A stretch of DNA of 64,000 nucleotides from Deltaproteobacteria bacterium (lineage in GTDB: Bacteria > Myxococcota_A > Polyangia > Polyangiales > Houyiibacteriaceae): NCBI GenBank assembly GCA_034670305.1, contig JAXMNT010000007.1, positions 64,001 through 128,000 of the forward strand, written 5' to 3'. The position numbers and the translations under genes were made by a program. This document shows positions 3,473 through 40,163 of the stretch, one piece after another. The notes below the pieces were generated by a model that had not been told where the DNA came from, did not search any database, and worked only from the letters and a program-made list of their open reading frames with translations. How positions within the stretch are numbered: the stretch's first letter is position 1; every line of letters starts with the position of its first letter.

Positions 3473-3883
3473 ATGGGCATTCGTCGAAAAGCACGCGAGG
3501 CTGCGCTCCAGATCCTCTATCAGATCGATGCCTCCGGTGCGTCGTGTGAGGATGCGGTCCGTACCTACTGGACCCATCTCGCGGCGACCCCCGATGCGGA
3601 GGAGTTCGCGACGGAACTCGTACGCGGCGTGGACGGACACATGGAGCGGATCGACGACACGATCCGCAATGTGAGCCATCATTGGCGGCTCGAACGCATG
3701 ACCCGGGTGGATCGCAACATCATCCGTCTCGCCACCTTCGAGTTGCTCGAGATGGCGGAGATCCCTCGGCGGGTGACCCTGAACGAAGCGATCGAACTCG
3801 CGAAACGGTTCGGGGCCGAGGGCAGCGCCAAGTTCGTCAACGGTGTGCTCGATCGGATCGCAAGCGACGCCGGCAAGGTCTGA
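3473..3883 (+). CDS. nusB: Transcription antitermination factor NusB
   Basis: RRKAREAALQILYQ, WRLERMTRVDRNIIRLA, NEAIELAKRF, FVNGVLD; usual position after ribH. Confidence 0.97.
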   Translation: MGIRRKAREAALQILYQIDASGASCEDAVRTYWTHLAATPDAEEFATELVRGVDGHMERIDDTIRNVSHHWRLERMTRVDRNIIRLATFELLEMAEIPRRVTLNEAIELAKRFGAEGSAKFVNGVLDRIASDAGKV

Positions 3884-4404
3884 TGGAGATCCGGTTCGCG
3901 CCGGCCGACCTCCGTCGGCTGGATGGCATCCAGAGCGAAGCGCTCGCGATGACGTTCTTCCAGGACGAACGCCCCCTCCGCGGTGCGCTTGGTCTGATCG
4001 ATTGGCGCCTCTGCGGCTTTCTGTCGCGGCAGCTGATCGCTGGTCGATTGAGCGGTCGTTTGGACGACATGGTGCTGGTGCCGACGCGCGGGCGGCTCAG
4101 TTGCGACAAGCTCTTCGTCCTGGGGCTCGGCAAACGCGAGGCGTTCGATGGCGAACGCTACGAGACCGTACTGACGACCCTGTTCGCCGCGCTCTCGAGG
4201 GCGAAAGTGCGTTCGAGCGTTTGGTCTCTGCCTGGACGTGCGACGCACGCCATCGGCGCTGGCGAAGCCATGGAACGTTTGCTCCGTGTCTCGCAAGGCT
4301 TCCAGGATCAGGACGAGTTGACGGTCCTTGAAGGGCAGGATGGACAGCGTGAGATGGAGTCCGTCGTACTGCAGGAGAAACGAAGGCTGCGTGCCTTCGA
4401 GTAG
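3883..4404 (+). CDS. Stand-alone M17 leucyl aminopeptidase N-terminal-domain-like protein
   Basis: ATG overlaps the nusB stop (TGATG); FFQDERPLRGALGLIDWRLCG and KLFVLGLG resemble the PepA N-terminal domain; no catalytic domain. Confidence 0.7.
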   Translation: MEIRFAPADLRRLDGIQSEALAMTFFQDERPLRGALGLIDWRLCGFLSRQLIAGRLSGRLDDMVLVPTRGRLSCDKLFVLGLGKREAFDGERYETVLTTLFAALSRAKVRSSVWSLPGRATHAIGAGEAMERLLRVSQGFQDQDELTVLEGQDGQREMESVVLQEKRRLRAFE

Positions 4405-4407
4405 CGT

Positions 4408-6354
4408 CTAACGACGCTTTTTCTTCTTGGCGGCCTTCTTGGTCGTCTTCTTCTTGGCGGCCTTCTTGGTCGTCTTCTTCTTGGCGGCCTTCTTGGTCGT
4501 CTTCTTCTTGGCGGCCTTCGTGGTCGTCTTCTTCTTGGCGGCCTTCTTGGCGGTCTTCTTCTTGGCGGTCTTCTTCTTGGCGGCCTTCTTGGCGGTCTTC
4601 TTCTTGGCGGCCTTCTTGGTCGTCTTCTTCTTGGCGGCCTTCTTGGTCGTCTTCTTCTTGGTCGTCTTCTTCTTGGCGGCCTTCTTGGTCGTCTTCTTGG
4701 CGGCCTTCTTGGTCGTCTTCTTGGCGGTCTTCTTCTTGGCGGCCTTCTTGGTCGCCTTCTTCTTGGCGGTCTTCTTCTTGGCGGCCTTCTTGGTCGCCTT
4801 CTTCTTGGTCGCCTTCTTCTTGGTCGCCTTCTTCTTGGTCGCCTTCTTCTTGGTCGTCTTCTTCTTGGCGGCCTTCTTGGTCGTCTTCTTCTTGGTCGCC
4901 TTCTTCTTGGCGGCCTTCTTCTTGGTCGCCTTCTTCTTGGTCGCCTTCTTCTTGGTCGCCTTCTTCTTGGTCGACTTCTTCTTGGCGGCCTTCTTCTTGG
5001 TCGCCTTCTTCTTGGTCGACTTCTTGGCGGCCTTCTTCTTGGTCGCCTTCTTCTTGGTCGCCTTCTTCTTGGTCGCCTTCTTCTTGGTCGCCTTCTTCTT
5101 GGTCGCCTTCTTCTTGGCGGCCTTCTTCTTGGCGGCGGCGGCCTTCTTCTTGGCGGCGGCAGCCTTCTTCTTGGCGGCGTCGGCCTTCTTCTTGGCGGCG
5201 GCCTTCTTCTTGGCGGCCTTCTCGCGAGCGATGCGCTTCTTCTCGGCGACGACGGCGGCCTTCTCGCGGGCGATGCGCTTCTTCTCAGCGGCCACGGCCG
5301 CCTTCTCGCGGGCGACGCGCTTCTTCTCAGCCGCCTTTTCGCGGGCCACGCGCTTCTTCTCGACCGCAGCCAGTCGGGCGAGCTTCTTCTTCTCGCGATC
5401 GGCCTTCTTCTTCGCCGCCGCCTTCGCTTTGGCGACGCGCTTCTTCTCGGCTGCGACCTTCTTCTTGGCCGCCGCCTTCTCGCGAGCGATGCGCTTCTTC
5501 TCGGCCAGCTTTTCAGCAGCCTTCCGCTTGGCGAGTTTCTCGGCGGCGCGTTGGGCATCCCGCTTGCGTTTCTCCGCCTCTTTCTTCTCGCGCTTCTTCT
5601 TCGCAGCGGCGTCTTTGATCGCCTGCTGCTTTCGAAGCTCCGCGTCGCGCTTCTCCTGGATGCGTCGCTGTGCTTCTGCCTTCGCGTCGGCGGCCTTCTC
5701 AGCCGCCCGCTTGACCGCGAGCTCCTTCGCCTTGGCCTGCTCCGCGGCGCGCTTGGGCTTCTCGGCCTCGACCGCCTCGACCGCTGCTTTGGATCCGACC
5801 GGCGGGACGCGCGTGCGTTTGGGGGGCGCGAGGATGGGGCGTCGGCCGTGCCGCTGGTCCGGCGTCGGCATGACGCCCTTGCGGGAGGCGTCGCGCAGCG
5901 CGCGCCGAGCGGACTCAGGGCTCGAGAAGAAACGCTTCATCGACTCCAAGTAGAGCGATCGCCAGAGCTTCTTGTATTGCTCGGCCTGTCCGGCCGGAAT
6001 CTCGGTGTGCTGGATGATGACGCGGGTTCCACCCGCCACCGGCTCCAGCAACACTTCTACCTGCGAGTCCGCGACATCCGTCGGAAAGTCAGAGGTTCGC
6101 CAGGTGAGTACGATTCGCCGCCCCGTGTCCAGAAGGATGTGGGTGGCGTCGATGTAGCCATCGGCGGCGGTTAGCCGCCCCCCAACCCATTGATCCACGG
6201 TCGCGCGTTTGCCGGTGAACGCCGAATGTCTGCGTTCATCCATCCACGCTGCATAGATGGAGTTGGGGCTGCTTGGTATCAGCGAGGACACCTTCAGCTC
6301 TTCGTTCCCTCCACCCTCAGGCGGCGGGACATTTTCGGGCGGGTCTTGAGCCAT
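4408..6354 (-). CDS. SRPBCC/AHSA1-domain protein with charged helical segment and very long histone-H1-like Lys/Ala/Thr tail
   Basis: ATG at 6354 after an AGGGAG RBS; N-terminal IYAAWMD...HSAFTG...[14 protein letters not shown]...[24 protein letters not shown] (AHSA1-like), then [12 protein letters not shown] repeats and [14 protein letters not shown] repeats. Confidence 0.85.
4417..5220 (-). repeat. Coding minisatellite of mixed 12/15-bp units (e.g. CTTCTTCTTGGTCGC, CTTCTTGGCGGC) encoding [14 protein letters not shown]
   Basis: Directly visible tandem array of about 800 bp. Confidence 0.97.
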
Positions 6355-6549
6355 TCCGCTCCCTTGGGTCGTCCGGCGCCACCTTGGGCGGAACCGCTGT
6401 GCCTCACGCTGGGCCACCCCTGCACGCTTGGCGAAGAAAGGAACTGTTCCGCATCGTGCCATCGACCGGCACACTTTCACCAGAAAAGTCGCCAGCCCGG
6501 TCTCAATCGCACCGCTTGACCCAACTCGGCCGCGTGCTTCTCTCAGGGC

Positions 6550-9500
6550 ATGCCAGGGCGTGCATCGCAAGGGGACCAGGGCCGATGGGCCATCTGGATC
6601 GACCGCGGCGGCACGTTCACCGATTGTGTCATGCGGCACTCGGGAACCGGCCAAGTGCTCGTATCCAAAGTGCTTTCTGGTCCTCGGTCCGCGCTCGAGG
6701 CGGTCCGTTGCGCCCTCGGCCGGTCCGCCTCCGAAGCACTTCCCCAAGCCGACTGGAGGTTGGGCACCACGGTCGCCACCAACGCACTGCTCGAGCGCCA
6801 GGGCGCGCGGACTGTGCTGATTTCGAACACTGGTTTGGGCGATCTGCTGCGCCTCGATGACCAGACTCGGCCTTCGCTCTTCGCGCTCGGGGTCGCTCGG
6901 CCGGTCCCTCTGGCCATCGCGCGCGAGGTCTCGGGGCGGCTCGACGCAGGTGGCCACGAGCTCGAGCCGCTGGACGAGGGCGCGGCCGAGGCTCTGTTCC
7001 GAGGGTTGGCGGCCGAAGGGGTCGAGGCGTTGGCCATCGCGCTGCTGCACAGCACCAAGAACCCCGATCACGAACGTGCGCTGGCCGAGGTCGCCGCCCC
7101 GTTCTTCGACACGGTGGTCTGCAGCCATGAAGTCTCCGGGGCGCGTGGCCTCTTGGCGCGGGCACAGACCGCCGCCCTCGACGCCTACCTCACACCGGTC
7201 CTCCAGCGCAGCCTTCACACGCTCCGGCGCGAAATTCCGGACTCCGAACTCCTCCTGATGCAGTCCAGTGGAGACCTCCTCGAGTCCGCGCAACTGCGGG
7301 GACGAAACGCGGTGGGCAGCGGCCCTGCGGCAGGCGTCATCGCGTGCGCGGCCTGGCACGCCCGGGTCGGCCAGCCGATCCTGGGCTTCGACATGGGTGG
7401 CACGTCGACCGACGTGTGCCGGGTGGATGGCACGCTCGAACGAACCGACGAGATGTTCGTCGATGGCGTGAGGGTCCGTGCGCCCGCCCTTCAGCTACAC
7501 ACGATCGCGGCAGGCGGTGGATCGATCTGCGAGATCGCAGCGGGCCGGTACTTGGTGGGTCCCCGGAGCGCGGGCGCGGATCCGGGCCCGCTGTGCTACG
7601 GGCGGGCTGGCGCGGGCCACCCGACGCTGACCGACGCGGCGGTCACGCTCGGACTGATCCCGGAGGGTGCGCTCCCAATCCCGATCGACCGGGCGCGGGC
7701 CCGGGCTGGATTCGAATCGCTCGATCCCAACCGCACCCCCGAAGCGTGTGCCGCGGGCTTTGTGCGGGTGGCGGTGGAGACCATGGCGACCGCCATCGAG
7801 GTCGTCTCGACGGCGCGCGGTCACGACCCTCGGGATCACGCGCTGCTGAGCTTCGGAGGCGCCGGCGGTCAGTACGCCTGTGCGATCGCAGAGCGCCTTG
7901 GGATCCGGAGGGTCGTCCTTCCGCCGTTCGCGGGGGTGTTCTCTGCGTGGGGCATGGGGGTGGCGTCGGTGGGTCGGCACGCAGAGCTCGGATGCGAAGG
8001 GGTGCTCGACGCCCCGCACCTGCAGCGCGTCAGAGACGCGGTCGCCACACTCGAGCGGACACTCGACTCGGATGCGGAGACGGCACCGGCGGACACCACG
8101 ACGTACCTGGCGCTGCGGCTCGCCGGCATGGAGCAGGCGCTCGAGGTCCCGTTCTCCCGGGAGGATTCGTTGGCTGAGGTGCTCGGCAAGTTCGGCGCGG
8201 TGCACCGGGCTCATTTCGGGTACGAAAACGAAGGCACAGTGCACGCGTCCCATGTGCGTGCGCACCGCCTCGAGCGCCAGGGCGGAACCGCGTTCGACGC
8301 AGCCGTGGGGCTTGGCGAGGCGCGGTCGGGCGATGCGCCCACACCGCGGCGGGTTCGCCGGTTCATGGGCGGCGCCTGGCGGGAAATCGATTGCGTCGCT
8401 CGCCAAGACGTTCGCGGTGGAGAGAACGGACCGCTCGTGGTGCTCGACGCGACCAGCACCTGTGTGGTCGACGAAGGCTGGCGGACCCGCCGGGAGGGTG
8501 GGCTGCTCGTACTCGAACGCGTTTCCGCGGGCGAGTCTCCGACCGTGTCTCCGACCGTCCCTCGCGACGCCTCGATCGTGGATCCCGTGTCGTTGGCCGT
8601 GATGACGGAACAGTTCAAAAGCATCGCGGACCGGATGGGGGTGCGGCTGCAACGCACCGCGTCCAGCGCCAACATGCGAGACCGGTTGGACTTCTCCTGC
8701 GCGATTTTCGATCGCGCCGGGCAACTGATCGCCAACGCGCCCCACATCCCGGTGCATCTCGGTGCGATGGGGGAGAGCGTGCGTGCGGTCCTGCGCAGGC
8801 ACCCCACGATGCGACCGGGCGATGCCTTCGCCACGAACGACCCCCGCGAAGGTGGCTCGCATCTGCCGGACATCACCGTCGTGATGCCGGTGTTCGGCGC
8901 GGGCGACGATCACCCCCGCTTCTTTGTCGGATGCAGGGGACACCACGCGGACATCGGTGGTGTCGAACCAGGATCGATGCCCGCCAGCAGTGGTCGCCTG
9001 AGCGAAGAAGGCGTGTTGATCGACTGCGTCCCGCTGGTGCGGGAGGGGGCGTTTCAGACCGCGCAGATCCTCCGCGCACTCTCCGAGGGCCCGTACCCCG
9101 CCCGCCAGCCAAACGAGAACCTGGCCGACCTCCGCGCGCAGGTGGCTGCGTGCCACCTTGGCGTCGAGTTGCTGCTCGCCACCTGCGACCGACACAGCGC
9201 CGCGTTCGTCGAACGCTACATGGGCTTTGCGTGCGACGAGGCCGAACGCGCGGTGCGTCGCAAGGTAGGCGCGATGCCCGATGGCACGCATACGTTCTCG
9301 GATCGACTGGACGACGGAACCGTCCTGCAGGTTCGGGTCGACATCGAGGGCGAGCAGCTGCGCATCGACTTCGCAGGGACGAGCGCACGGCATGCGGGCA
9401 ACCTCAACGCGCCACGTGCGGTGACGCGCGCCTGCGTGCTCTTCGTGCTGCGGGCGCTGCTTGGCGAGAGCCACGCCCCGCTGAACGATGGGTTCCTGCG

Positions 9501-38752: not shown

Positions 38753-40036
<1,284 letters not shown>

Positions 40037-40062
40037 GCCAGCGGCAGACCCCAGGCCGGCTG

Positions 40063-40163
40063 GCATCGGTTTCGGGATCGGCTTCGGGATCGGCTTCGGC
40101 TTCGGGATCGGCTTCGGCTTCGGGATCGGCTTCGGGACCGGCTTCGGCGTCGGCTTCGGCTTT
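40063..40163. repeat. Intergenic hexamer-period repeat (TCGGCT/TCGGGA)n
   Basis: About 16 tandem 6-bp units directly visible. Confidence 0.92.

Follow-up and report, generated by a model that had tools for sequence, protein, structure and literature searches.

Gene and architecture at the locus

The window analyzed here (the whole stretch of 64,000 nucleotides, i.e. positions 64,001 to 128,000 of contig JAXMNT010000007.1, from assembly GCA_034670305.1 of a Deltaproteobacteria bacterium placed in the Polyangiales) contains, on the reverse strand at 4408-6354, a single stop-free frame of 648 codons that closes with a stop codon at 4408-4410. The gene encodes an AHSA1 domain, referred to below as the head, fused to a very long lysine-rich tail of the histone H1-like type. 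It lies among ribBA, ribH, nusB, an M17_N-like open reading frame (ORF), and a 5-oxoprolinase gene; ribH, nusB, and the M17_N-like ORF converge on it. A four-part protein of 648 residues had been proposed at this position in a sequence-only reading of the window, and the frame, the AHSA1 match, and the compositions reported below bear this out. As read from the sequences of its members, the architecture of the family comprises five parts: (i) an AHSA1 head resembling the Aha1 C-domain; (ii) a helix and an RRP(I/F)(V/L)xP motif; (iii) a charged, putatively single helix, found in close relatives; (iv) a Lys/Ala(/Thr/Pro) tail; and (v) a C-terminal Arg cluster (Table 1).

Table 1 Features of the gene and its flanks in window coordinates, and other lysine-tailed loci of the source genome
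Feature	Position	Strand	Basis or remark
Whole coding sequence	4408..6354	-	Open frame; same architecture in orthologues
AAGGGAG, Shine-Dalgarno-like, 4 bases 5′ of ATG (6354-6352)	6359..6365	-	Direct sequence reading
AHSA1/SRPBCC head (Aha1 C-domain-like), residues 29-142; predicted fold residues 17-142	5929..6270	-	Pfam PF08327, PDB match, AlphaFold2, Foldseek
Extra conserved helix after the domain, residues 146-159	5878..5919	-	Head model; 16-row alignment; tail starts of relatives
Pro/Arg-rich linker, residues 160-190, predicted disordered	5785..5877	-	Composition; predicted local distance difference test score (pLDDT) <50 for 156-187 in the full-length model
GRRPILAPP, residues 170-178; family consensus RRP(I/F)(V/L)xP	5821..5847	-	Tail starts of relatives; P0176
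E/K/A/R-rich helical segment, residues 191-383	5206..5784	-	Composition; 42-nt repeats; predicted helix
K/A/T array, residues 384-648 (265 residues): K 147, A 68, T 45; units including KKKTT	4411..5205	-	Translation, composition, tandem repeats
C-terminal KKKKRR; terminal Arg cluster conserved in the family	4411..4428	-	Comparison of 67 basic tails
Terminator-like hairpin, 9 bases past the stop codon, within the end of the convergent M17_N-like ORF	4381..4399	-	Consensus scan only
M17_N-like ORF, 173 residues, solely a cytosol-aminopeptidase N-terminal (M17_N) domain, directly after nusB	3883-4404	+	Convergent on the tail gene
Intergenic region of 195 bp common with the divergent 5-oxoprolinase gene; presumed promoter site	6355..6549	.	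ORF layout
Fused HyuA/HyuB 5-oxoprolinase, 1,197 residues, only 5 Lys codons	6550-10143	+	Divergent from the tail gene
Lysine-tailed loci, source genome	G000:C20:62728-65748, C4:125900-127364, C1:301082-302350, C30:24194-25300, C5:203615-204529, others (L126-L141)		

The gene is real and intact. P0173, a partial protein from another assembly with 99% identity, has the same N-terminal Met as the window protein, and within the coding frame the tail combines a G+C content of 0.93-0.98 at third codon positions (GC3) with one of 0.27-0.47 at first positions (GC1). The assembly was checked against Logan contigs from four DNA runs of a single study, which may represent the source sample. These contigs showed no differences from the window over 5107-6600 and 4300-4450, which corroborates the head, the linker, most of the helical segment, the stop codon, and the downstream neighbor; in three of the runs, 4300-4450 (the 3′ end with the stop codon) was found on the same contig as this neighbor. 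None of the contigs in the four runs bridged the K/A/T array at 4450-5107, which was covered by fragments of 40-95 bases only, so that the number of K/A/T repeats is that of the source assembly. Contigs of other loci with the same repeat ran into the array, and a joint reported as 'skips 47' at 5059-5107 had a shorter side of only 30 letters, too short to interpret. Two contig ends of the source genome (G000:C25:1-600 and G000:C96:2-322) also stop in KKKAT repeats resembling the ones in the window gene, i.e. the assembly breaks at such repeats elsewhere too.

Scans of the whole protein against Pfam and NCBIfam returned no family, which is attributed to the low-complexity tail. When residues 1-160 were scanned alone, Pfam AHSA1 (PF08327) matched residues 29-142 with 57 bits (cut-off 22.1, E = 3e-15), in agreement with the domain named in the sequence-only reading. 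The only other Pfam match in this part was a weak one to Polyketide_cyc2; neither an Aha1 N-terminal domain nor a linker-histone winged helix was matched in the whole protein or in residues 1-160. The AlphaFold2 model of the head (100-row alignment) had a pLDDT of 95.2 and showed a helix-grip fold, with a helix over 124-142 after six strands (three residues or longer) in the stretch 17-120. The best PDB match by sequence was the human Aha1 C-domain 1x53 (E = 9e-8). In a Foldseek search of the PDB, the model was closest to 8z3h (E = 2e-12, template-modeling score 0.91, root-mean-square deviation 1.4 Å, 22% identity), followed by 1x53, 7dme, Plasmodium 3ni8, and yeast 6xle, the best six all being eukaryotic Aha1 C-domains. 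Bacterial AHSA1 proteins, e.g. 3q63, and then the enediyne-resistance-type proteins CalU16 and DynU16 occupied lower ranks; 342 PDB entries matched at E ≤ 0.001, and those listed had SRPBCC-type folds. The head is established as an AHSA1 domain, and as modeled it is nearest to eukaryotic Aha1 C-domains. A protein atlas returned generic AHSA1 clusters only (scores 0.91-0.92). Prediction of a two-copy head complex scored 0.00, which gives no verdict and says nothing on dimerization either way.

Residues 146-190, beyond the head, are rich in Arg (20%) and Pro (18%) and carry a net charge of +9. The RRP(I/F)(V/L)xP motif lies about 25 residues beyond the post-domain helix; its window version, GRRPILAPP, is AT-hook-like but lacks the canonical R-G-R-P core, the closest approach being H-G-R-R-P at residues 169-173. 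The helical segment (193 residues; A 30%, K 26%, E 13%, R 12%; net charge +44) contains 14-residue repeats of the form AEKKR(V/I)AREKAAxx, seen in the DNA as a 42-nt array at 5212-5331 (Tandem Repeats Finder). From the single sequence, AlphaFold2 predicted one continuous helix over 189-431 (pLDDT 83-93 over about 200-400) and a second over 439-647. The coiled coil implied by the sequence-only reading was not recovered: large hydrophobic residues account for 22 of the 193, and the power at a period of 3.5 was reached by 97.7% of 2000 shuffles, i.e. there was no heptad signal. A period of 3.6 was significant (1 in 1000 shuffles). These properties suggest a charged single helix rather than a zipper, two states that AlphaFold2 cannot separate.

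The terminal array (residues 384-648) consists of K 55%, A 26%, and T 17%, with a net charge of +148, and corresponds to 15- and 27-nt tandem arrays at 4421-5132 (Tandem Repeats Finder score 752). The tail as a whole (residues 161-648) holds 200 Lys in 488 residues (K 41%, A 26%, T 10%; net charge +198), i.e. it is a long, low-complexity, and highly positive K/A(/P/T) region of the H1-like kind, with AAG as the codon for 192 of these 200 Lys. Since Lys makes up 2.0% and Arg 8.3% of the proteome of the same genome (1,324 long ORFs), the tail represents a 20-fold and Lys-specific departure. By its composition, the tail is under Lys-specific selection and matches the signature of known H1-like DNA-binding tails.

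Conservation of the tailed family in Polyangia

Comparison with relatives places the window protein in a conserved, so far undescribed family that is found order-wide in Polyangia-type myxobacteria. A search of representatives of all lengths gave 1,547 relatives at E ≤ 0.001, of which 617 reached E ≤ 1e-10; among the best 150, no protein exceeded 559 residues. Re-scanning of 156 proteins (representatives from this search plus matches from an earlier search with the head) found a basic tail of at least 40 residues in 105 and none in 17, while 34 were mixed, partial, or frameshifted-looking. At the genome level, the gene was present in 27 of 41 related whole genomes, including 19 of the 24 within the same family. 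A phylum-wide sample had matches at E ≤ 1e-15 in 62 of 301 genomes (17/17 for the same family), and those in other classes were mostly frames of 135-240 residues, i.e. stand-alone domains. The named relatives are uncultured Polyangiales, Sandaracinaceae, or Myxococcota metagenome-assembled genomes, save for four bins labeled Coxiellaceae, Xanthobacteraceae, Nitrospiraceae, and Melioribacteraceae.

The association of head and tail was followed in 94 distinct loci chosen by head similarity alone, 18 of which were cut at an end or masked and were dropped. Defining a basic tail as at least 60 residues with a net charge of at least +15, 67 of the 76 complete loci had one; two others had basic tails of 40-42 residues, and the remaining seven had none, all of them at 47% identity or less. 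At head identities of 55% or more, the tail was present in 55/55 loci, with lengths of 99-386 residues. The fusion is thus conserved and under selection, and the orthologue survey proposed with the sequence-only reading came out in its favor. Tail length, counted from head position 145, varies with the repeats and ranges from 75 to 504 residues (median 310). The window copy is the extreme of the family (504, with the next at 386), subject to confirmation of its length by long reads; tails of 285-386 residues occur in relatives on contigs of 0.4-9 Mb (L004, L038, L044, and L064).

Apart from composition, several details recur. Forty-two of the 67 tails end in RR, compared with 0.84 expected from composition, and the Arg fraction is 0.44 in the last six residues vs 0.10 over whole tails. 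None of the other tail-bearing proteins of the source genome ends in RR, which points to a family-specific terminus. The post-domain helix (residues 146-159) is kept in the alignment and in the tail starts of relatives, and many members have an acidic patch ahead of the basic tail, which is a strongly acidic stretch in P0087 and P0145. In P0147 and P0136 the order is permuted, with the basic region N-terminal to the AHSA1 head; that both orders exist argues that head and basic part are functionally coupled. The tails of P0011, P0178, and P0179 have precomputed matches to the Hc2 model (PF07382), and P0147 reaches 22.9 bits on it, under the cut-off of 40.

A few members depart from this pattern. 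One, labeled Vulgatibacter sp., has an Arg/Thr-rich instead of a Lys-rich tail. The tails of P0006, P0008, P0010/L020, and L087 switch mid-way to an alternative reading of the repeat (e.g. QEACPQEAC or acidic runs), which probably reflects either frameshift errors in repeat assembly or real pseudogenization. The same AHSA1 subfamily also occurs in other fusions (P0063, P0075, and P0101), with a carboxymuconolactone-decarboxylase domain, a MobA-like NTP transferase, and a periplasmic-binding-protein domain, respectively; the latter two also have a short basic tail.

Lysine tails elsewhere in the genome and gene neighborhood

A six-frame scan of the source genome detected K/A(P/T/S) tails on at least 12 other, unrelated proteins. 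According to Pfam these comprise topoisomerase I (TopA), trigger factor, MetK, RimK, an Smr protein, a thiolase, a WGR-PARP_reg-PARP protein, TfoX_N, an ArsR-methyltransferase, DUF1801 and DUF2461 proteins, and a glyoxalase/bleomycin-resistance-type protein. The last (G000:C25:1-600) has a KKKAT-repeat tail, and that of the DUF1801 protein scores 43.5 bits on the Hc2 model. With 212 Lys in its frame, the window protein has by far the highest count, the next being 109. Such a spread over unrelated proteins indicates that the lysine tail is a generic module of the lineage; as judged from these genes, the habit is lineage-wide and not restricted to DNA enzymes. A dedicated coupler of signal to nucleoid compaction, as envisaged in the sequence-only reading, was accordingly an over-reading. 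In the PARP-like protein (G000:C21:95150-97000, L127), the WGR, PARP regulatory, and PARP catalytic domains are preceded by an H1-like tail of about 100 residues with KKAA/KKAP units.

The surroundings of the window gene are also conserved. Synteny with the convergent ribH, nusB, and M17_N-like ORF is maintained among relatives, the divergent fused HyuA/HyuB 5-oxoprolinase is found at 17 of 19 relatives' loci, and the M17_N-like ORF keeps its place at 8 of the 19, a count limited by flank length. A sigma-70 promoter scan of the intergenic region at 6355-6549 gave no consensus site, and no gene for a CarG partner lies nearby.

Elsewhere in the window, an intergenic hexamer repeat of about 100 nt (GGCTTC/GGGATC-type units) is located at 40062-40162, just past the stop of the ORF at 38753-40036. 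The loose pattern GGNNT[C/G] with at least eight repeats occurs in 690 arrays in the 7.9-Mb genome (median length 102 nt), whereas 1 Mb of shuffled sequence contained none. Translated in six frames, these arrays give PKPKPK or RKRKRK frames.

Candidate functions

With confidence slightly above even, we read the protein as one tethered to DNA or the nucleoid, or possibly to RNA, with an Aha1-like head of ligand- or partner-binding type. DNA binding, a nucleoid location, and any role of the head are inferred. On this reading, the Lys tail would bind nucleic acid non-specifically by charge, chiefly chromosomal DNA, and would keep the head on the nucleoid; its +198 charges could also neutralize and compact DNA locally. 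The head, in turn, would bring a second activity to DNA, either the binding of a small hydrophobic molecule or the docking of a partner. We know of no DNA-binding function of AHSA1 domains.

Parts of this arrangement are familiar from other systems. Lys-rich, H1-like tails of mycobacterial HupB and TopA, Chlamydia Hc2, and Pseudomonas PhaF and AlgP bind DNA. PhaF, AlgP, and Hc2 (HctB) share with the window protein Lys/Ala-rich short tandem repeats of variable number, and tails of its relatives score on the Hc2 model; however, Hc2 and AlgP are without a folded head, and PhaF combines a phasin domain with a leucine zipper, neither of which was detected in the window protein. HupB/Hlp, Ku, and TopA of mycobacteria and HupS and DdbA of Streptomyces, all from high-GC bacteria, like the window protein place Lys-rich low-complexity tails on folded domains in Arg-preferring proteomes (the TopA of the source genome is tailed too), but in most of them the folded domain itself acts on DNA, which AHSA1 is not known to do. 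Eukaryotic linker histone H1 likewise consists of a globular head and, C-terminal to it, a long tail rich in K/A/T/P, although the window head is not a winged helix and there is no evidence of nucleosome-like partners. The nearest structures and PDB sequences for the head are the eukaryotic Aha1 C-domains (human 8z3h and 1x53, yeast 6xle); the window protein lacks an Aha1 N-domain, and related genomes show no co-occurrence of its gene with Hsp90.

The literature offers further parallels. No publication describing the fusion of an AHSA1 domain with a tail of the H1-like type turned up in full-text searches, in keeping with the sequence-only reading, which knew of no characterized example. The CarD transcription factors of the myxobacteria Anaeromyxobacter dehalogenans and Vulgatibacter incomptus are described in PMC9304148 as having a K/A/P-rich, H1-like C-terminal DNA-binding domain. 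They come from the same phylum and follow the same logic, and an acidic stretch before the basic tail is also present in the relatives P0087 and P0145; in contrast, the window head is AHSA1 and not the RNA polymerase-interacting CarD/CdnL domain, and the window tail exceeds theirs several-fold in length and is rich in Thr. In M. smegmatis Ku, DNA binding is modulated by Lys-rich PAKKA repeats (PMC3553676), and Streptomyces DdbA joins an H1-like domain to a DksA-like domain that does not bind DNA (PMC3643593). For helix-grip domains, a 2026 review of bacterial START proteins (PMC13525633) mentions M. tuberculosis Rv0576, which has a DNA-binding motif of the classical kind and a START domain, and CalC, a START-fold protein with a small DNA-interacting region that inactivates a DNA-cleaving enediyne; the word 'lysine' is absent from this review. 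Rv0576, the plant HD-Zip III/IV proteins, and CalC thus resemble the window protein in joining a helix-grip pocket domain to DNA or having it work nearby. They differ in possessing a sequence-specific helix-turn-helix or homeodomain, or no tail, where the window protein has a giant non-specific polycation as its putative DNA binder.

Several observations weigh against a nucleoid-tethered protein or fit it poorly. The exact number of K/A/T repeats is a value of the source assembly only. A Pfam scan of residues 161-648 returned no family even at E = 10, phasin and Hc2 (PF07382) included, and the distant tail-bearing members have no neighbor genes in common. In six RNA-labeled runs, 0.07-0.09 of the sampled words were found, probably as low-complexity matches. 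Measured against 17 ORFs of the ribosomal-protein operon, codon bias of the non-repetitive head is like that of an average gene (log-likelihood ratio -0.079, a value equaled or exceeded by 71% of background genes), a poor fit to an abundant structural chromatin protein; codon usage of the tail looks 'ribosomal', but this look comes from few repeated codons. Finally, the same type of tail is present on trigger factor, RimK, and the Smr protein, as well as on MetK and thiolase. The first three are ribosome-linked, so that RNA or ribosomes may be the target of the tail.

This last point leads to the main rival, which we consider unlikely: an RNA- or ribosome-associated factor whose tail would bind rRNA or other RNA and whose head would act at or near the translation machinery. 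The trigger factor, RimK, and Smr families, whose members in this genome have similar Lys tails, act at the ribosome, and the gene adjoins ribH-nusB in conserved synteny. However, the characterized Lys/Ala(/Pro) tails (CarD, HupB, Ku, TopA, Hc2, PhaF, and AlgP) bind DNA, TopA and the WGR-PARP-like protein of the same genome bear the same tails, and the nusB synteny is common to the whole neighborhood, in which the gene is convergent and not part of an operon. A PhaF- or PhaM-like granule tether, with the head or helix on a polyhydroxyalkanoate or polyphosphate granule and the tail bound to the nucleoid or to polyphosphate, appears improbable. The order of head, helix, and H1-like tail recalls PhaF, and Lys-rich tails also bind polyphosphate, but the PhaF analogy and the granule positioning of the sequence-only reading found no counterpart: the helical and tail parts match neither phasin nor any other Pfam family, there is no leucine-zipper or heptad pattern, and the neighbors are riboflavin genes, nusB, the M17_N-like ORF, and 5-oxoprolinase, with no pha or ppk gene among them or at 14 relatives' loci. 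We would likewise not expect a lipid-binding protein of the START type that uses its polybasic tail to stay on the anionic inner membrane and serves in lipid sensing or transfer. A tail of 488 residues and +198 is far beyond the known membrane-targeting polybasic patches, no amphipathic or transmembrane segment is present, and the closest structures are Aha1 C-domains and not lipid-transfer STARTs, although the head has the helix-grip fold of the START/SRPBCC superfamily and in START proteins with several domains the pocket is often coupled to modules for membrane targeting (PMC13525633).

An assembly artefact, in which a collapsed, expanded, or chimeric K/A/T array hides a shorter or broken protein, is very improbable. 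It would account for the breaking of the short-read contigs of all four runs throughout 4450-5107, for the repeat contigs of other loci that run into the array, and for the C25 and C96 contig ends in KKKAT repeats; against it stand the frame, open over 1,947 bases and ending in the conserved K-K-R-R terminus of the family, the recovery of the 3′ end with its stop on the contig of the downstream neighbor in three runs, and the 285-386-residue tails of relatives on 0.4-9 Mb contigs. Least credible of all is a bacterial Hsp90 co-chaperone, in which the Aha1-C-like head would stimulate the Hsp90-family protein of the cell. Some of the six best structural matches were solved on Hsp90 (6xle and 6xlf), and the genome encodes an HSP90-family protein (NF010683, 733 bits). 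The idea was rejected on co-occurrence, taking E < 1e-40 as a strong Hsp90-family match: of the 41 related genomes, 14 have both genes, 13 the tail gene only, 9 Hsp90 only, and 5 neither. Hence 13 of the 27 gene-bearing genomes lack such a match, among them the 99-100% complete G002, G010, G015, and G018, 9 of the 14 genomes without the tail gene have one, and no Aha1 N-domain was detected; the chaperone link raised in the sequence-only reading falls with these counts. The only strong Hsp90-family gene of the source genome (G000:C30:81622-83427, L101) is of the divergent NF010683 (PRK14083) type and falls below the cut-off of Pfam HSP90 (21.7 bits).

More specific forms of a DNA-bound pocket can be imagined, to which we give only a slim chance. 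The protein might be a Polyangia-specific chromatin component that places the pocket domain on DNA, either (a) as a linker-histone analogue whose head senses a hydrophobic metabolite or a partner, with about 45 KKAT-type threonines allowing kinase-controlled release, or (b) as a 'guardian' tethered to DNA, which would capture or inactivate hydrophobic natural products that damage DNA right where these act, as CalC does for calicheamicin. For (a), the KKAT-type sites may be seen as resembling those of basophilic kinases; in favor of (b), the glyoxalase/bleomycin-resistance-type protein of the same genome also bears a KKKAT tail.

Bacterial chromatin outside model organisms is poorly known, and Lys-rich H1-like tails are a recurring, little-understood part of it. 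If the tail is merely a generic address tag, the window protein would be an ordinary member of a lineage-wide habit. Within this habit the window copy is the extreme case, with its 488 tail residues, a charge of +198, and a 20-fold Lys enrichment over the proteome. The family appears well suited to study, as its conservation extends over an order of uncultured myxobacteria and it joins the tail to a domain without known DNA role; the RRP motif and the Arg cluster at the end, which are conserved and can be mutated, and both domain orders offer handles. It would allow one to ask what such tails do, whether they are general address tags for the nucleoid, and what purpose Aha1-like AHSA1 domains serve in bacteria.

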